Positions 18,057-61,534 of a stretch of DNA of 64,000 bases are shown here, in pieces. Below the pieces are notes generated by a model. The model was not told where the DNA came from, made no database searches, and saw only the letters and a program-made list of their open reading frames with translations. The DNA is taken from contig NC_091978.1 of assembly GCF_044704955.1 (NCBI RefSeq), positions 235,538,001 to 235,602,000 on the forward strand, read 5' to 3'. Position 1 is the stretch's first letter; every line of letters starts with the position of its first letter. This DNA is from Pristiophorus japonicus. Taxonomy: Eukaryota. Both the position numbers and the translations under genes were made by a program.

Positions 18057-18246
18057 TGTTACGCTCATAATAAAGGATACAACTGAGTACTGTATGCAAT
18101 GAGTAAATGTGATCTTAGCGCCTTTAATTAAACTCCAGAGTGCTTATATACCGTGCTCCCAAGGGATGCTGGGATCCCTTGGGACTCCAACAGATAGGCC
18201 CTCTGGTGGTGGTGTGATACAGGTTGCCAAGGGTACATAAATAACA
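18057..18246 (-). repeat. G1 3' LTR
   Basis: Direct repeat of 22303-22515; lacks about 22 bp between TGCT micro-repeats. Confidence 0.95.
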
Positions 18247-18278
18247 TCACTCCCTCCCAAAGTCAATAGTACACTTAT

Positions 18279-21200
18279 TTACAGGGTGAGACGATCTGGG
18301 GCTTCTCGCACCCTTGTCAATCGTCTCGGTACAAATGCAGGTGTGGGTGAGTTGGTTGGTTCTTCGCTGGGCTGCTGGGCAGCTGGCCTTGCTGGGCTGC
18401 TTGGGATGGTGAGTTCAGCTTCGTGGCTAACCGTGATGTCGGTTGCCACTTGTGTGTGTGTTGGAGGGTCGAAGTTGTGGTGTCCTCTTCCGGTTTCTCG
18501 TGGCTGTTTGTGAACTGCAATTTGGTTTGGTCCAAATGCTTTCTCCACGTTAGTCCATTGGCCAATTGAACCTGAAACACCCTACTCCCTTCTTTGGCTA
18601 TGACAGTGCCAGCAAGCCATTTGGGACTATGTCCATAGTTGAGTACAAATACAGGATCATTGACTTCAATATCGCGTGACTGATTTGCACGATCATGGTA
18701 CATGCTTTGTTGATGCCGCCTGCCCTCGACGTGATCATGGAGATCAGGGTGGATAAGAGAGAGCCTTGTTTTGAGTGCCCTTTTCATGAGCTGGTCAGCT
18801 GGGGGAACCCCGGTGAGCGAGTTGGGTCTGGTATGTAGTAGCTGAGCAGGACTCGGGACAGGCGGATCTGCAGGGAGCCTTCCGACACAAGTTTCAAGCT
18901 TTTCTTGATGATTTGTACTGCCCGTTCTCCCCGGCCATTGGATGCGGGCTTGAACAGGGCAGATGTGACGTGCTTGATCCCATTGCGGGTCATGAATTCC
19001 TTGAATTCAGCACTAGTGAAACACGGCCCATTGTCGCTGACAAGGACATCCAGCAGGCCGTGTGTGGAAAACATGGCTTGTAGGCTTTCACTGGTGGCGG
19101 TGGACGTGCTTACAGACATTATTGCACATTTAATACATTTTGAATAAGCATCCACAACAATCAAGAACATTTTGCCGAGAAATGGGCCCGCAAAGTCAAC
19201 GTGGATCATAGAGCATGGTTTGGAGGGCCACAACCACAAACTTAGCGGTGCCTCTCTAGGTGCATTGCTCAGTTGAGAGCAAGTGTTGCATTGGTGCACG
19301 CATGACTCTAAGTCTGAGTCAATGCCAGGCCACCACACATGGGATCTGGCCATAGCTTTCTTCATTACTATGACTGGGTGGGTACTGTGTAGGTCACTTA
19401 TGAATGTTTCCCTGCCTTTCTTAGGCAAAACCACGTGATTACCCCACAAAAGACAGTCCGCCTGTAAGGACATTTCGACGATGCGCCTCTGGAACGGCTT
19501 GATCTCTTCCTACATCTCCGCTGGGACGTTGGACCAGCTCCCATGGAGGACACAGTTTTTTTACCAGGGACAGTAAAGGATCCTGGCTCGTCCAGGTCCT
19601 GATCTGGTGGGCCATAACAGGTAACTTGACATTTTCGAATGCATCCATCACCAAGAGCAAGTCTGCAGGCTGTGCCATTTCCACCCCGGTGGTGGGCAAT
19701 GGTAGCTGACTGAGAGCATCAGCGCAGTTCTCTGTGCCTGGTCTGTGGCAGATTACATAGTTGTATGCCGACAGCGTGAGCGCCCATCTTTGAATGCGGG
19801 CAGAGACATTGGTGTTAATCCCTTTGCTCTCTGAGAATAGCGATTTGATCGGCTTATGGTCAGTTTCTAGCTCAAACTTAAGACCAAACAGATACTGGTG
19901 CATTTTTTTTACCCCGTAAACGCACGCCAGAGCTTCTTTTTCAATCATACTGTAAGCCCTTTCGGCCTTGGACAAACTCTTGGATGCATAGGCGACCGGT
20001 TGCAATGTTCCTGATTCGTTGGCCTGTTGTAACACACACCCGACCCCGTATGATGATGCATCGCAAGCTAGCACTAATCGTTTACATAGGTTATACAGAA
20101 CAAGCAGTCTGTTTGAACATAACATATTTCTGGCTTTCTCAAAAGCAGCCTTTGTGATTTCCCCCATACCCAGTCGTCTCCCTTACGTAGTAGCACATGT
20201 AGGGCTTCTAGCAAGGTGCTTAACCCGGGTAGGAAATTACCGAAATAGTTGAGGAGTTCCAGGAACGACCGCAGCTCCGTCACGTTCTGTGGTCTTGGCG
20301 CGTTCTTGATGGCCTCCGTCTTGGCGTCGATGGGTCTGATGCCATCTGCCGTGATTCTTCTTCCTAAGAACTCAACCTCTGGCGCCAGGAAAACACACTT
20401 CGAGCATTTCAACCTGAGTCTCATGCGATCTAGCCGACTTAGAACCTCTTCCAGATTCTTCAAGTGTTCGATGGTGTCCTGACCTGTGACCAGTATGTCA
20501 TCCAGGAAAACCATGGTCCGTGGAACTGACTTTAGCAGGCTCTTCATGTTCCATTGGAAAATTGCCGTGGCCGAACGAATCCCAAACGGGCATCTGTTAT
20601 AGATGAACAGACCTTTGTGTGTGTTGATACAGGTGAGGCCTTTCGAAGATTCCTCCAGCTCCTGTGTCATGGAGGCTGAGGTCAGGTCCAACTTGGTGAA
20701 CATTTTTCCTCCAGCCAGGGTTGCAAATAGGTCGTCTGCCTTGGATAGCGAGTACTGATCCTGTAGCGAAAAATGGTTAATCGTTACTTTATAGTCCCCA
20801 CAAATTCTGACCATGCCGTCGCCTTTGAGAACCGGAACAATTGGACTGGCCCACTCATTGAACTCAACCGGCGTGATGAGGCCTTCTCGCTGCAGCCTGT
20901 TCAGCTCAATTTCCATTTTCTCTCGCATCATATATGATACCGCCCCAGTCTTGTGATGGATGGGTCATGTACAGGGAACCAAGTGGATCTGCACCTTCGC
21001 CCCCGAGAAACTTCTAATGCCTGGCTCAAATAATGACGGGAATCTGCTCAGAACCTGGGCACATGAGGTGTCGTCGACGGATGAAAGCGCTCAGATGTCG
21101 TCCCAGTTCCAGCGGATTTTTCCCAGCCAGCTTCTGCCAAACAGTGTTCGTGCACTGCTCCATCATAGGAGACTTTTACTTCTGCGCTGCCAATAACAGG

Positions 21201-22270
21201 GATCAGCTCTTTGGCGTAAGTTCTTAGCTTGGTGTGAATGGGGCTAAGCTTGGGCCTGTGTGCCTTGTTGCTCCACAGCCTGTCGAAGGCCCTTTTGCTC
21301 ATTATAGACTGACTCGCACCCATGTCCAGTTCTATGGATACTGGAATTCCATTCAGTTCAACTTTTAACATGATCGGTGGACATTTCGTGGTGAAGGTGT
21401 GTACCCTGTACACTTCTGTCTCCTTGGTTCGAGTCTCTAGTTCAGCCTGATCCACCATGGATCGATCGTCCTCTGTAACGTGGTGGTTTGCAGGGTTTGC
21501 AGTTCGTCTGCACATTCGCTGGAGTTGTCCCATTGTTCTACACCCTAGCACGCATAGTGTTTGAAGCATAATTGATGGGCCCGATGATCACCTCCACAGC
21601 ACCAACAAGGTGTTAACTGCCTCGCATTAATGATTGATGGCTGATTCTGGGTCATCTGAGGTCGTGCAGCTGCCAGAGTGTACATTCTGTCATTTGCATT
21701 CCTGCTTAAAAATGACGTTACTTTGTGTACAGTACTGGCCGAAACCTCTTTATGCTGCAAAATTTGTTTGGTGTTATCGCTGGTGGACATAAATGCCTGG
21801 GCTATCGTTAAGGCTTTGCTCAGGTTCAGTGTTTCAACAGTCAATAGTTTGCGAAGGATAACCTCATGGCCAATGCCAAGTACAAAAAAGTTTCTGAGCA
21901 TTTGTTCAAGGAATCCAGCAAATTCGCTTTTGTCCTGCAAGACGCCTTAGTTCGGCAGCGTGGTTCGCCACTTCCTGGCCTTCTGATCATTGACATGTGT
22001 AGAATCGATACCTCGCCATCAAAACTTTTTCCTTCGGATTTAGGTGCTCCCGGACCAGCGTACACAATTCTTCATAGGATTTGGTTGTTGGTTTCATCGG
22101 AGCCATAGGTTGTTGCCCCACAGACGGTAAGGAGGATCGCCCTTCATTTGGCAGCGTTCTCGTCCCCTTCCAGCTCGTTGGCCACAAAGTATTGGTCAAG
22201 TCACTCCACGAAGGCCTCCCAATCATCTCCTTCTGAGAATTTCTCCAGGATACCAACAGTTCTTTTCATT
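18279..22270 (-). pseudogene. G1 gag-pol (frameshifted)
   Basis: gag (FSEGDDWEAFVE; CWCCGGDH knuckle), protease (ELDMGAS), RT (WASPIVPV, FLDDIL), RNase H (LACDAS, ETDHKP), integrase (HVWWPGI, HVDFAGP, SDNGP). Confidence 0.95.
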
Positions 22271-22302
22271 TCCGTGTGGTTGTTCGTTACCTCGTCGCCA
22301 AT

Positions 22303-22515
22303 TGTTACACTCATAGTAAAGGATACAACTGAGCACTGAATGAAATGAGTAAATGTGACCTTTGCTCCTTTAATTAAACTCCAGAATGCTGGTACAGCAT
22401 GGGAGACCTGCTTATATACCGTGCTCCCAAGGGATGCTGGGATCCCTTGGGACTCCAACAGGAATGCCCTCTGGTGGTGGTGTGATACAGGTTGCCACAG
22501 GTTACATACATAACA
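22303..22515 (-). repeat. G1 5' LTR
   Basis: Adjacent to the PBS; contains TATATAA on the minus strand. Confidence 0.95.
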
Positions 22516-22891
22516 AATATCACAGTCCAGAATAAGTTATAGTGAAATGAAAAAAATAAATGTGAATAATTGTTGAGTTCAAGTATAAACAAACTTCAGT
22601 AAATTTCTTAGCTAGTTTTCTGTCAGCATATTGCATGGTTTTGAAGCAGTACAAATGAAATTATTGTGCAATGAAGTTACTTTTCTAAATTTTAGTTCTA
22701 TTAATAAATGTAATTAAGGATCAGTAATGTGAGTTTTCATTGCTAATTTAAAATTATATTGTCTTCAACTTTTGCACTTTTTACTTTTAGTATAAAAAAA
22801 GGAAAAAATCATTAAAAAAACAATAGACATCCAGATACATTCAGTGAGAATCAGTGAACAAAAAACTTTTTTTAACATCGCTTAAACCAAG

Positions 22892-53198: not shown

Positions 53199-53482
53199 GT
53201 TTTTTTAATCTTTTTTTAAAATTTTTTAAATTTTTTATCCAACTCTAACGCCAAAGATCACTTTGCGCCAATGTGTTTGATCTTAGGCCAAAAGGCCGAG
53301 AGGCGAAGTTGCACCGTTCCTGGAAATATTGCAATACCAGGTCGGTGCATGGAGTGGATGGGGCATGCCCCTGATCCAGCTCCTTGTCCAAAAATCAATT
53401 CAATATCATGTCCCCATAGGGGATATTAAACTGATAAGAACAGATACTACACTTGATCTTAGCCAAAAGGCCGAGAAGCGAT
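53199..53482 (-). mobile_element. U2-snRNA-headed retroposon (candidate SINEU-like element)
   Basis: Full U2, second U2 5' fragment, 40-nt unique segment and A-rich tail; splits the Gypsy ESTM|LVHYD sequence with an ATGTT duplication. Confidence 0.85.
53308..53482 (-). ncRNA. RNU2: U2 spliceosomal snRNA-derived sequence (retrocopy, probably non-functional)
   Basis: ATCGCTTCTCGGCCTTTTGGCTAAGATCAAGTGTAGTATCTGTTCTTATCAGTTTAATATC matches the vertebrate U2 5' end; Sm site GATTTTTGG; stem-loop IV CCTGGTATTGCA..CCAGG; about 9 nt of stem IIa/IIb missing. Confidence 0.95.
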
Positions 53483-54555
53483 GTTAGTTCACTATGACGT
53501 ATCTAAGGAGATCAAGCGAGCATATGACACCTCTCCGTATGGAGTTGGAGCAGTGATCTTTCCTGTCCTAGTTAGTAGGGAGGAGAGACCAATTGCTTTT
53601 GCTTCATGCACTCTCAGTGCCAGTGAGCATAATTATGCGCAGATCAAAAAAGAAGCTTTGGCATTCATTTTTGGGGTCAAGAAGTTCCACAAATTCTTGT
53701 ATGGTCATAAGTTTACCATTGTTACTGACCATCAACCCCTGTCAGCAATTCTCCATCCAAAGTCCCCAGTTCCAACCTTAGCCGCAGCCCGAATACAGAG
53801 ATGGGCTTTGATTTTATCAGCCTATACGTATGACATTGAGATCAGCAAATCACAGTAATGTTGATGCTATGTCCAGATTGCCATCCCCATCACTAGTTAC
53901 ACCCAATAGGAAAGCCAAATTTGTCACAGTTAATAGAAGAGAAACAATTAAGATAGAAAGAGAATCATGATAGAGGTAGAGTAAGAGAGAGAAGTGTGAA
54001 ATTGAATCAGGAGTTTAGAGTGAAGAAACATCCCCATAAATGGTTAAAGTCATTCCCAGGAAGAGTAGTGAAGATATGTGGTCCTTGCACATATTTGGTC
54101 AAGATGTCTGATCATGGAATGGTTAGGTTTGTTCACATTAATCATATTTTACCTACAGATGTGGAAGGAGTTGAAAGTTAGAATGATTCTATTATTTCTG
54201 ATACAAGCCAGTAGCAAATCCTACATCATGTGTAATAGAAACAAATCCAAGAGGAAGTCAGAATTTAAGTCTGAGTCCGAGTCAGGCAGATAAACCTGAA
54301 TTTGTAGAGAGTCAAAATGTTGCCCTTGGAGGAAAAACTCTTCTCAGGCTCAGCCTGGAATGAGTCTACGTTCATCACCAAGTTGCGAAAGTTCTGTTCG
54401 AGAGCGAAGGTATCCTCTTCGAATCAGAAAACCAGTGGTTAAGTTTGATTTGTAAATATGGCAAAATAAGTCCATATCTTTTGTTGTGTATAACCATGCA
54501 AGTTACATTTGCTGATTATTTTGTTGTGATTACTTCTTCAATGTGGAGGGAAAAG

Positions 54556-54727: not shown

Positions 54728-55201
54728 TGGGGTTTTTGGGGATGTTTGAGGGATGGTTAAATAATAAATTGTTATTTTGACCATCTCCTTCAGCCTCTGG
54801 TGTATGACTGTGGACTTGTGATGGAGATGTGGCATTATTGTGGCACGATGCTCGGTCATTATTAGCTACATCCTTCAGCTCCCTCCATTTAAGCAAATTG
54901 ATCCCTTATGAGCCGCCGCCGAATAGCGCTGGCACTGCCAACATTAGCACGCAACCTCCTCCGTGGCTGTTGCTGCTCCTTGTCGTCTTGCTGGACATTT
55001 GGTGCATCGCCAGGCTCCTGTTCCTCTTCCACCTCCTCCTCCCCCTCCACCTCCTCCTCCTGAGGTGGGCCTGCGATCCCTACTGGCCAAGTTGTGCAGC
55101 ATGCGCCACATCACAATGAATAGTGAGACCGGTTGAGGTGAGCATTGAAGGCTGCCTCCAGAGCAGTCCAGGCATCGGAATGGCTGCTTTAGCACACCTA
55201 T

Positions 55202-55495
55202 TGTCATGTATCTAGACATGTTACTGCCTGTACTATTACATGTGATGTGCCACCAGAGGGCACTACTATGGGAAACTTGTACACCAGCTGTATGGTCACG
55301 AAGGTGTGCCACCAGAGGGCACTGCAGTGGGAGACTTGTAGGTTATCTGTACAGGTGGGCCAGGCCTAGTATAAAAGATAGGCCACCATGTGTGATCCTC
55401 ACTCTGGAGTTATATTAAATGGACTAAGGTCACTACAGTTCAAGTGCAATATATTGCCGTGTGGAGTCATTATCAGAGCATCTAAAGGCATAACA
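55202..55495 (+). repeat. G3 5' LTR
   Basis: TGTC...AACA; internal 59-bp duplication; TATAAAA at about 55370. Confidence 0.95.
55250..55322 (+). promoter_or_regulatory. Two CTCF core consensus matches in the G3 LTR (also 58394-58407 and 58453-58466)
   Basis: CCACCAGAGGGCAC at 55250 and 55309 fits CCASYAGRKGGCRS exactly; binding not demonstrated. Confidence 0.6.
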
Positions 55496-55528
55496 AATGG
55501 CAACGAGATTACGAACTTTCACACGAAA

Positions 55529-58017
55529 GTGGCTAACCTTGGCATGTTGCAGCAATTCGCCGATGGAGATGGTTGGGACGCCTTTGTGGAGAGGCTCGAC
55601 CATTTCTTCACAGCAAACAACCTGGCAGGCGACAACCCGGCCACACTGACTGATAAGCGCAGAGCTATCCTGCTAACCATTTGTGGGGCCATCGTCTATG
55701 GCCTCATCAGGGACTTGCTGGCACCAGCGAAGACAATGACCAAGATATATGAGGAGCTTGTAACACTGATTCAAGAACAACTCAAGCCCAAAGAGAGCAT
55801 CCTCTCAGCCAGACACCGGTTTTATCACCACCGACAGCCCAAAGGCCAGGAAATCATGAAATATGCTGCAGACTTCAGGAGGCTGGCGGCACCATGTGAT
55901 TTCAGCGACCACCTCACCGAAGTGCTGCGGGATATCTTTGTCACCGGAGTCTGTCACGAGGGCCTTTTTCATAGGCTACTGTCTGCGGATACCACAGTCA
56001 CACTGCAGAAGGCCATCACCATGAGCCAGGCATTCATGACCTCGACCTGTGGCTCTAGGCGGATGACTCATCCTCAGGACTCAAACCCGGCAAGTACCAC
56101 ACACAGAATGGCGCCTTTTAGAGGCTGGATTGTAGAACGTGAATCTCCTCAGGAGAGAGAACAGGCCCCCGAGTCCTTTAACAGGGTCTGCCAAGGGGGG
56201 CTAATCAAGTAGCACCATGCTGTCGTTGTGGAGGGAATCACAGGGCTCACCATTGCTGTTTTCAGGACTATGAGTGTAAAGGCTGCAGCACAAAGGGCCA
56301 CCTCCAGCGAATGTGTAAAAGAAATATGACTCACTGTGTTGATGAAGAGTCTGCAGATGGCCATGAATCCAGCATGGATTATGAAGCGATAGCCAGAGAG
56401 GCAGCTCAGCCCCACGATGAGGTGTATGGCATATTTACCTGCACCACAGAATGTTCCCCGCTGAGGATGGAAGTCGAGAAAAACAGCGTTCCAGTCTTCA
56501 TGGAAGTGGACATGGGGGCGAGCCAGTCAGTAATGAATCAAGAAGCCTTTGAGAGGCTATGGGACAATCAAGCTGAACAACTCAAGTTGGTCCTGGTTCA
56601 GGTAAAGCTGCGCACCTGCACCAATGAACTTATCCCAGTCGTTGGTAGTGTGGATGTAAAGGTACTCCATGATGGCGCAGTGCACAAGTTACCACTGTGG
56701 ATTGTTGCAGGTAATGGACCAACGCTACTCGGTAGAAAGTGGATGAAGAAGATCCATTGGAGCTGGGAAGATTTCACCCCTCCAGCAATCGACATCCCCC
56801 GCGCTCAGAGGCAAAGCAAGCTCCCACCGGAGGTTGGATCCGGCACCAGCGAGCAGACCAGCACAGCACACGAGGCATAGACCACTCAGCACAACTGTGT
56901 GGAGATGATCCAGCTGAGACAACCCGAACGCACTTTTCAGGCTCGAGTGGCAGGACTCCGGTGGAAGAAAATCGGATCCAAATGCGACTTCCCAGCCTTG
57001 GTGGCAGAACCCAGAGAGAAGAGGATCACAGCAGTCGACATCGTGGATGGAAGAAAGATGGCGCCCAAACCACGAGGTGATGCGCTAAAGAAAAAGATGG
57101 CGGCGGCCAGACCACGAGGTGCAGCGCTAATGGAGCAACACGTGGTACCAAGCGAAGAAGAGGATTGGGGTAAAGATAGCAAGGCCCTCTCAAAAGAGAC
57201 CAGCAACCCACCACACCTAAAGGGACAGTTCCACATTCTCAATCAATGTAATAGCAACTGTGAGTCAAATGTAAAGCTTGTAATTGATGATTAGAGTATT
57301 ATATACGTAATAAGCAAAGAAAAGTCGTGCGATTCCAATCGGAGATACAGTATATCTACAATGAGTAATGAAATGTTGTGCGATGTAGTATTTCAACTGT
57401 ATTCTGATTATGCAGCGGGCAAACACCCATCGGGAGCACACAGGTCCAGTGAGCTTCCCGATGTTGTAGCCTGCATCCCTGGGACCAGAGTGATGCATCA
57501 CGGAGTGTGGCCACAAGCAACTAAAATAGACAAGCTGCAGAGCAAGCGATCTCAGGAGGGCAACGGCACCGGTATTGATACCCTGCCCCTGATCGGCTCC
57601 ACCTCTCAGGCACCCAATGGCACCAACCGCCACGAGCCTGAAAGAGCAAACCACGCTAAGGCGCAGCTCCCAGACCCTATCGCCACCAAGACTACACCTG
57701 GGAATGAAGGGTCCCCCACAACGGTCCTCCCAAATGGGACCGGGACGAGTCAGGATCCCAACCCAAAGAACGCCCAGGCAAGCAAGTCAGCAGTTCCCTG
57801 CGCACTACCAGATGACTGCCCCTCAGGGACCAGCAGCGACCCAGGTCACAAGGAAAGGATAGGGAGGTCACAGGCATCTGTGAACCTGCCCAACGCTAGG
57901 AGCAACGACAAGGGCCCCAAGAGCAGGCAACTTGAACCAACCGAGTTCCCACTGCCAGCACTGGGCACCGCGCCACCACCAGACTACGTGGACACCACCC
58001 AGCAGTTCTGGAACTAG
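55529..58017 (+). pseudogene. G3 gag-protease-X polyprotein (one frameshift, two in-frame stops)
   Basis: gag WDAFVERLDHFF..RRAILLTICG; two CCHC knuckles; protease MEVDMGAS..LLGR. ORFs at 56311, 56899 and 57361 share one frame. Confidence 0.8.
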
Positions 58018-58345
58018 CTTGTCCTCATGCCCAGGTGCTGACACCAGCACTGACTCCAAGTATGTATCAAGAATGTACCTCACCAGTCAAATGTACTTGC
58101 CTCACAACTGTACCACAAATGTATATGAATGTAACTAGCCACCGGCATAATCTATATGTGGGAGGGGGAGAGAATGGAGTGGTCATGGACTCACAAACAG
58201 AAACTACCAGCACCTCTACTGCCAACGAAACACCTCCTACTCACCCAAGATGGAAACGACCCCCAAGGGTCAACCAGACAGAGCTAAGCCCAGAGCACAG
58301 TCAATGCATGAAGGCAATTTGCACTAAGGACTTGGGGGAGAGTGA

Positions 58346-58640
58346 CGTCATATATCTAGACATGTTACTGCCTGTACTATTACATATGATATGCCACCAG
58401 AGGGCACTACTATGGGAAACTTATACACCAGCTGTATGGTCACTAAGGTGTGCCACCAGAGGGCACTGCAGTGGGAGACTTGTAGGTTACCTGTACAAGT
58501 GTGCCAGGCCTAGTATAAAAAGGCAGACCACCATGTGTGATCCTCACTCTGCAGTTACATTAAATGGACTAAGGCCACTACAGTTCAAGTGCAATACATT
58601 GCCTTGTGGAGTCATTATCAGAGCATCTAAAGACATAATA
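58346..58640 (+). repeat. G3 3' LTR
   Basis: Direct repeat of 55202-55495. Confidence 0.95.
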
Positions 58641-61534
58641 CCTATAGTCTGCTCTATGATGTTGCGGGTGGCAGCATGGCTCTCATTGTAGAGTTCCTCC
58701 AGCTCTGTGGGGAATTTGTGGAGGGGAGTCATTAGCCAGGTGGCCAGGCCATATGCCTTGTTCCCGAGCAGACAGCTTCGGCCTTCCCGTGGTGGCTGAA
58801 ATAGTCGAATCACAGTGCTCTCCTGGAGGATAAACGCATCATGTGTGCTTCCAGGATAGCGAGCAGTGACTGCAAGGATGAGCTGCGTGTGGTCGCACAC
58901 CAGCTGCACATTTAGGGAGTGGGTTCCCTTTCTGTTTCTGAAGATCTCTGCATTCTGAAATGGTGCTCGCAAGGCCACATGCATGCAGTCAATTCACCTT
59001 ACACCCTCGGGAAGCCCGCTATCCTGGCAAACCCACATGTGCGCTCATCCTGTTTCTCCTTGGTCATCGGGAAGGCAATGAAGTCCATTCTACATCTGTA
59101 GAGAGCCTGTGTGACATCGCGGATGCAGCGATGTGCAGCGAATTGTGAGACGTTGCATATGTCTCCTGATGCAGCCTGGAAGGAGCTGGAGGCATAGAAG
59201 GTGAGTGCCACCATGACCTTCACTACGATGGGCAGCGCTTCGCAGGTCTTCCTGCAAGAGATGGCATATCTCTGTAATTACCTGCTTTCGGAAGCGCAGC
59301 CTTCTGACACACTGCTCCTCAGAGAGGTCCAGGTATGAGCGTTGCCTCCGTTAAAGCCGTGGGGGTAAGGCCTCTTGCGCCGACCTCTAGGGGCTCTCCA
59401 CCTTCAGCCGCCAACATGGCTTTCTCTCTTCACGACGCCTTGCTAGAGTATTTAAAATGCGACTCTGCTGGCATAGTAATGCACCCATTAAAGTTTTCAA
59501 AATGACTTTTTCTCAAGCTGAACTGTTATGTCTGTCTGCCACTGCAAACTCGGAGGCTCACGTACCATGCTCTATGTAAACATTGCACTGACTGTGACCT
59601 TCGAGGGAAGTGCTTTCTCATCCCTTTAAGTAGCCACCAGTTAATGACTCTGGAAGTCTGCACTGACTGTTTTTTCAGACATGATTATTGGCGGTCGCTA
59701 AGTGAGGCGGCTGCACCTAATTTAGTGAGCATGGGAACTGCACCAGGACTGACGTTATGATCGGACTGATAGTTAGCAACCAGGCGCGAACGTTTTGTGC
59801 TCCCGGTAAACCTCTACTGAATTTTCCATCGGGGCGCTAAAAGCTGCATGCCCGGTCGGTAAGCTATTACGCTTGCATTAATGCAATAGCTTTGGCTGCT
59901 AACTGAGGCCATAAACTACCGAACATCCAGCCCTATATACCAGACAAAAAACATTTCCTAATAATCAGCTGCAGATCAATTTGTTATAAATCTGATGTAA
60001 TATCAAAGTTGTTAATCCTCATGTGGGAATGTTGGTTTGTATGAGGAACAGGAAGCCCACTGATGTCTGGGTGGAAAAGTGCTGCAAGCACAAAAGATAA
60101 CCAAAAATTAAATTAAGTCCCATTTAAAACAAACATCACAGACCACAGATAGCAAAGGCATGATTTCAAGGCAGTGATCAGCTTTAGTATTCAGCTGACA
60201 GTTAGAAACCAAATGACATTATTTGAACTGAATTAGACAATTGGCCTTTATTAACTCCCAGGAATCCAGTCTCACAATAAACTAGATGATACTACTATTT
60301 GATTGCCCCAAAGATGTGTATTTTAAAATGTGTAATGGACATATGAAGCTTCTGTTTAAAAATATTTTTTATAAATATGAAAATAGCTACAATGTTACTT
60401 CATAATATTTACATTCTTTACTACAAGAACCACCAAACATTATTTGAAATACCTGCTTCTGTCACAAGTGAGAAAAAATGTTCAGAAAGTGGAAGGCTAT
60501 GCACAAACCCGCATTACTAAACATTACATAAAAGTGTTTCCACTGCTGTTGATGGCAGAGGATTTCAATAGGCCAACACATCAACTTTAAAACGGCACTG
60601 TAGAGTATATGTTATTTTAGTGGGTGGTCTTAGGTATCCTTATTGAAAAAACATTAACTTCTATTATGTGAACTGAAAGATACAGCGTGAAAGAAAATGT
60701 ATTTGGGGTTTATAACACAGGTGCACTGTCTGGGTTTGTTGAAATGCTGAAACATCTGCACAGCTTACATTACATTTCTCTTTCTCCCCCTGCCACCTGA
60801 TCCAAAGCAGCAGGACATCTCTTCTTAAGTGAGGTTATTTGCATTTGCTGTAAAAACATTGTCATAGACTTAGCTAAATCTATAACATACAATGGTCATT
60901 AAACAATCAATCAAGTCCCTCTTCCTTACAGATAAAAAATTTAAAGTTCATCATCACGAGCAGTCACACACTTATATGCAACTGCAGTGTATAAATATGA
61001 GAGTAGCATGGATTTAAATGGAGTTTTAGCACAAAGACTCCTTTCTGCAGTATATTCTCTTTCCCACCATAGCATATATAAAGTAATTTGCATTACCTTC
61101 TACTACTTTACTCATCACATCCTTGGAAATGTTTTCTGCGTGAAGACAGAGTTCAGGTTTTCAAGTTCACTGCCTGAGCAGTAACTTGGCAGAGTGAATT
61201 GTCAACCCATTGTAGAACCCCCACTTTAATCCCATTGAAATCAATGTGATGCAGCAAGACAAGTTCTACAAAGGGCAGGTGAGCAATCCGCTCCATCAGG
61301 TTACCACCTGCGCAGTAAAGGTGAAAATGACTCTCAGTGCTTTTGTATATCATCAGTAATTTCTGTGGAGGTTCTTTTGGTGAACAATTGTCAGAAATTC
61401 TGAGAGAGGATTGTTTACGTTGTTTCTCTGGGATTTCCACCAATCTTCTACCAAATTTACAGTGGACGAATGATGAATGCCTGCAGAAATTCTATGCTTA
61501 TAATAAAACCTATTTTCCTTCATATTTATAACTC

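Follow-up and report, generated by a model that had tools for sequence, protein, structure and literature searches.

The window analysed here is a 64,000-nt stretch of the genome of the sawshark Pristiophorus japonicus (NC_091978.1, positions 235,538,001 to 235,602,000 of the forward strand). Positions 55202-58640 (3,439 nt) of this window hold a real LTR-retrotransposon insertion with LTRs, a primer-binding site (PBS), a polypurine tract (PPT) and a CCTAT duplication, in agreement with the original prediction of a 3.4-kb element. The element lies inside a minus-strand Harbinger-type DDE_Tnp_4 transposase gene (window about 55140-55201 and 58641-59400), whose reading is back in register across the CCTAT duplication. 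The termini of the 3' LTR have both drifted (CG...TA in place of TG...CA), and PBS sites of the type found here occur twice in the window against 0.08 expected. In the following list, X denotes the in-frame extension behind the protease, family A the genomic family of this element, and G2 a pol-bearing Gypsy clade of the same genome; the basis of each assignment is given in brackets.

55197-55201, no strand: left copy of the 5-bp target-site duplication CCTAT (sequence)
55202-55495, plus strand: 5' LTR, TG...CA (93.8% identity with the 3' LTR)
55498-55507, plus strand: primer-binding site TGGCAACGAG (motif count)
55529-56436, plus strand: gag, comprising capsid, CCHC zinc-knuckle region (about 56218-56316) and linker (alignment to intact Gypsy polyproteins; dN/dS)
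56437-56766, plus strand: aspartic protease (weak Pfam gag-asp_proteas match, E=0.012; catalytic Asp; dN/dS)
56767-56895, plus strand: X piece 1, remnant of the protease-RT linker, with ~176 codons deleted behind it (nhmmer against G2 pol)
56909-57210, plus strand: X piece 2, remnant of the C-terminal half of RT, thumb/connection (nhmmer, hhalign)
57340-57815, plus strand: X piece 3, remnant of RNase H and of the linker towards integrase (nhmmer)
57816-58017, plus strand: X tail, ending at the family stop codon (family A gives no direct match to pol)
58018-58333, plus strand: 3' untranslated region, whose final part corresponds to the end of the pol frame in G2, with the integrase core deleted (nhmmer)
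about 58334-58342, plus strand: polypurine tract (sequence)
58346-58640, plus strand: 3' LTR (93.8% identity with the 5' LTR)
58641-58645, no strand: right copy of the CCTAT target-site duplication (sequence)

Upstream of the element, an RNase H-like fragment of another Gypsy is found at window about 53500-53900, adjoining a stretch near 53400-53480 that is presumably U2 snRNA-like. Within the element, the gag frame is broken near 56150-56185, a lesion that the original prediction had overlooked, and the frame after the protease is open to 58017 except for two TAG codons (56878 and 57292), just as had been noticed from the sequence. Behind the protease, Pfam detected neither RT nor RNase H nor integrase, and the six-frame scan of X was blank. 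The earlier claim that X lacks pol motifs is correct, but nhmmer and hhalign show X to be pol-derived nonetheless (see below).

The lesions of the window copy are largely not those of its family. Exact matches of a 21-nt X motif count at least 1,494 genomic copies of family A. A DNA search yielded 7,587 first-look candidates, 40 of which were scored; 19 of 29 other top copies were colinear from the beginning of the fetched stretch, which lies within the 5' LTR, and on into the 3' LTR; the remaining 10 were partial. X was also present in all 20 copies chosen for the similarity of their protease (out of 150 listed, from among top matches and long open frames). The stop at 56878 recurs in 1/29 of the other copies and that at 57292 in 0/29, while the terminal stop at 58015 is common to 26/29; the two X stops and the gag frame break are essentially private to the window copy. 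When 48 family A rows were aligned (the window copy and 47 of 49 loci, two being left out for large inserts), no stop was shared across the ~830 codons of gag-protease-X, so the consensus is a single open frame, as had been proposed, and the catalytic Asp of the protease was kept in 44/48 rows. The colinear copies, the constant presence of X and the 1,494 motif matches show that the family amplified without an RT or integrase of its own, and they bear out the prediction of a high-copy non-autonomous Gypsy family that spread in its present form. The window element is a dead copy of this family.

The same gag-protease-X layout is found in three sister families. B and C comprise 30 loci each, with 16 and 19 in their alignments; D comprises 15 of the 20 loci to which a gag DNA motif led, with 10 in the alignment. 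What led to A, B and C was X, its open frame or a protein clue; D alone was sampled independently of X. The four families are about 71-78% identical (to A or to one another, where compared) and form one clade (100/100) separate from the pol-bearing types G1 and G2. Their Gypsy descent follows from gag and protease, which match intact Gypsy polyproteins, and from X, which is colinear with pol. The X frames end in a similar C-terminus (...WN), and the X segment at about 57240-57340 grows by short in-frame tandem duplications in several subfamilies (L042, L046, L049, L093 and L099). Families A-D may already be catalogued in Repbase or Dfam.

The origin of X was traced through clade G2, which we located by a pattern combining an A-like protease end with an RT motif (249 matches). 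A DNA profile of family A (nhmmer) matches G2 pol colinearly, the reversed control giving 1 match at E=0.7; for X piece 3, E values went down to 1e-18 for A and 1e-83 for D, with 0-1 weak matches in the reversed controls. In G2 codons, X corresponds to 322-373 (linker) and, after a gap from 374 to 549, to 550 up to about 855-887. The gap contains the RT catalytic core including FQDD, and from codon 550 onwards X spans what were the RT thumb, the connection and RNase H. No integrase core is left, and the 3' untranslated region holds the last stretch of the pol frame. Both flanks of the first deletion were matched in A, C and D, while in B only the post-gap piece was. At the protein level, hhalign of X against the pol frame gave a probability of 94% for A (E=1.1e-7), 97% for C and 99.8% for D (E=3.5e-28), no significant pol match for the X of family B, and none for any of 8 off-frames. 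An X profile run against seven distant intact database pols gave nothing above controls, which explains why Pfam is blank for X; the alignments indicate that its homology to pol is revealed by the close genomic G2 clade only. Judged by these comparisons, X is best described as the element's own pol, twice deleted (RT core and integrase) and decayed. Two other sources were considered and rejected: the RT N-terminus for one X stretch, which matches the RT thumb instead, and host-gene capture, given the blank six-frame Pfam scan and the mapping of X to pol. Alignment to a degenerate pol, which the original prediction had named as a finding that would speak against a new protein, is thus what we observed, colinearly and in frame.

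To compare selection along the frame, we used net dN/dS between families, with within-family decay subtracted, for six family pairs that are not independent of one another. The values were 0.21-0.36 for gag and 0.18-0.49 for the protease; both are under purifying selection within the one gag-protease-X frame, which agrees with the claim that the element encoded its own gag and protease. For X, the same measure, for which a value near 1 had been named beforehand as speaking against the prediction, was indeed near 1 (0.76-1.17, with 1 inside all six intervals), and A versus G2 gave 1.14. Together with the in-frame pol alignment, this does not bear out a novel cargo protein. Meanwhile, individual regions of X deviate in both directions: dN/dS was 0.63 (0.43-0.94) in the first 150 codons for C versus D, 1.81 (1.13-3.04) in the X2 sub-region for A versus B, and 0.87-2.6 with wide intervals in the tail, and within family A the pN/pS of X was 0.75 versus 0.96-0.98 off-frame. 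Moreover, dS is lower in X (0.25-0.35) than in gag (0.36-0.68), so that a dN/dS of 1 could mask constraint on both kinds of site or a mosaic history. The amino acids of X are near-neutral, though not cleanly neutral everywhere. An AlphaFold model of protease plus X had a pLDDT of 27 throughout, protease included, and is therefore no guide to disorder in X.

The reading frame of X behaves differently from its residues. There are 0 shared stops in 417 (A), 395 (B), 371 (C) and 414 (D) codons of X, and each off-frame has 13-20; from the net divergence (branch lengths), ~26 stops would be expected in X versus the 0 observed. With a nucleotide-only aligner, 35/40 X blocks of at least 30 nt were in phase between families. 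One of the five exceptions, the block at 57849-57899 (45-51 nt, in the X tail), is translated in one frame in A and D but in a different one in B and C: A and C are 74% identical there at the DNA level and their peptides differ, and the other frame has a shared stop in A. This is a clear compensated frameshift. The other four out-of-phase blocks show 44-55% identity and may stem from noise in the alignment. Private indels in X that arose after insertion are in frame in 24/79 cases (A) and 12/42 cases (B). Families A-D therefore keep an open frame while the encoded sequence changes freely, as judged from evolutionary evidence, and since the frame is kept while the residues drift, selection seems to act on translation through X and not on its sequence.

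How such selection might arise can be put as follows. Active founders would have made their own capsid and protease, and their RNA would have been packaged in this capsid, with RT and integrase borrowed in trans from pol-bearing relatives of clade G2 or G1. Ribosomes running to near the 3' end would have spared the RNA from nonsense-mediated decay (NMD); founders with early stops would have had less RNA and left no descendant families, and X itself would ride along as a tail that the protease probably removes. With a stop directly behind the protease, 1,874 nt would lie between it and the end of the element, compared with 623 nt now. Long 3' UTRs are able to provoke NMD, and premature stops in RSV gag set off UPF1-dependent decay of unspliced RNA (PMC2925335, PMC7566565). 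At 1.9 kb, the 3' region would be long, not extreme, and frame-keeping alone does not single out NMD. From the sequence evidence we lean, by a little, towards this explanation, in which X, the decayed pol of the element itself, would be kept stop-free because a near-3'-end ribosome run lets the RNA escape NMD.

The alternative that survives best, possible but in our view improbable, is that the X polypeptide performs a task that tolerates sequence change, for instance as a disordered spacer or tail tuning protease activation, assembly or polyprotein stability, so that stops are harmful and substitutions harmless. The low hydrophobicity of X (0.17 in aligned codons versus 0.30 in pol), the mild constraint on its first 150 codons in some pairs and the similar C-terminal residues across families fit this idea. 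The composition of X is nevertheless close to that of its own off-frames, and the loss of T at codon position 2 goes only down to the position 3 level; selection for a soluble composition, indistinguishable from relaxation, was accordingly rejected. The block read in two frames and the tail dN/dS also count against a polypeptide with a job. We consider it distinctly unlikely that the element requires ribosomes to traverse X in cis for some purpose unrelated to NMD, such as RNA remodelling or a coupling of translation to packaging; models of this kind are discussed for DI RNAs in a passage of PMC4395149, they predict identical frame-keeping with neutral residues, and the low dS in X hints at constraint on the RNA. 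Very little probability remains for the absence of any selection, with the X frame inherited from pol and its apparent preservation due to ascertainment of open-frame families: X does derive from a coding frame, and A, B and C were found via protein or open-frame clues, but ~26 expected stops against none observed, and the equally open frames of D, sampled by a gag DNA motif, contradict it. A captured or newly evolved cargo protein is the least credible reading of X and is largely refuted, since most of X is in frame with pol and its sole database relatives are UniRef gene models of Pristiophorus japonicus containing pieces of these elements, even though X has no Pfam match and, in family A, neither its final 60-70 codons nor a short insert near 57220-57340 could be matched directly to pol.

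The pol-bearing relatives offer a counterpart to this architecture. The original prediction had likened the LTR termini to those of G1, which held only to the extent of a single 34-nt match; the LTRs of family A are about 70-75% identical to those of G2 over long stretches. G1 is more distant from family A than G2, and it was rejected as the closest partner. The G1 copy itself (window 18058-22516, minus strand) is a Gypsy copy that is complete, with full gag and pol, yet broken. Among 20 G2 loci (L141-L160), 2 have a full gag, 10 share a capsid deletion that keeps the frame (G2a), 6 are damaged in gag in some other way (G2b), and the last 2 are truncated, so that 16/20 sampled pol-bearing copies are gag-damaged; the G2a junction motif has 220 matches. 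In G2b, the frame of the gag stump is apparently shifted and still open into pol (L148, L155 and L160). The pol of G2a versus G2b has a dN/dS of 0.16, which marks both as pol-conserving and capsid-defective: they are the mirror image of the window element, with capsid lost and pol conserved. LTR-pair identities are mostly 88-96% for A, 89-96% for G2a/G2b and 89-95% for D, and these ranges overlap.

These observations raise the doubtful prospect of a two-part retrotransposon, in which A-D would give capsid and protease, G2a/G2b would give RT and integrase, and the two would complete each other. The low pol dN/dS of G2a/G2b despite capsid loss, the prevalence of gag damage, the related LTRs and their overlapping ages (about 88-96% identity) are in keeping with it. 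On the other side, complete elements (2/20 in the G2 sample, 3/20 in another sample, and the G1 type) could serve both parts, and because they exist, mutual complementation is possible but not required. If the two-part arrangement did hold, A-D would keep a translated ghost of pol and G2a/G2b only a capsid stump, somewhat in the manner of the segments of bipartite viruses.

Several known systems resemble parts of this picture, as far as the text portions cited here describe them. The TR-GAG elements of plants (Chaparro et al. 2015, PMC4350172) are likewise shorter than 4 kb, multicopy, equipped with LTR, PBS and PPT, limited to a single gag frame and devoid of working RT, RNase H or integrase. 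However, the gag of TR-GAG1 is described as Copia-type, and the family screen left out elements with an aspartic protease, whereas the window element has a vertebrate host, a Gypsy-type gag (it aligns with Gypsy polyproteins, and a Pfam search gave no UBN2 match for a Copia-type gag), a conserved protease and ~400 in-frame codons of decayed pol. The element works like a TR-GAG but, with its protease, pol remnant and Gypsy-type gag, falls outside that group. BARE-2 of barley (PMC4350172) and Tos17 of rice (PMC3977881) are described as gag-defective and pol-bearing, like G2a/G2b; they are plant Copia elements, and the window element has the opposite defect. In LTR-mediated retrocopies (Tan et al. 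2016, PMC5131818), an internal coding region has given way to other sequence between intact LTRs, as is the case here, but those carry host mRNA, and X, its short tail and insert aside, is the element's own pol. A further parallel comes from coronavirus DI RNAs, which are reported to need translation although what it yields may not matter (van der Most et al. 1995, as cited in PMC4395149 and PMC8255065). They too are helper-dependent genomes keeping a long frame of seemingly irrelevant sequence; unlike the present case, a germ-line retrotransposon with evolutionary evidence, they are RNA-virus replicons tested in culture. The literature titles and abstract openings covered, a scope that most subscription papers fall outside, mention no non-autonomous LTR element whose pol drifts neutrally with its frame kept.

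Pieces of these elements also occur in frame in sawshark gene models named TRIM25-like, sialyltransferase-like, FSIP1 and tetraspanin-4-like (P0002, P0008, P0010, P0014 and P0015). They are probably annotation artefacts, and gene models that absorb element pieces are an annotation hazard.

Taken together, the four families amount to an experiment of nature, replicated in evolution, in which selection for translation can be told apart from selection for the encoded protein: ~400 codons drift near-neutrally in each, and no stop has become fixed. This is also a route by which long, expressed open frames of low hydrophobicity may arise from dead enzymes as raw material. If the NMD explanation is true, the way parasitic retrotransposons are built would be shaped by host RNA surveillance, and a long open frame in an element of this kind should not be mistaken for a new gene.
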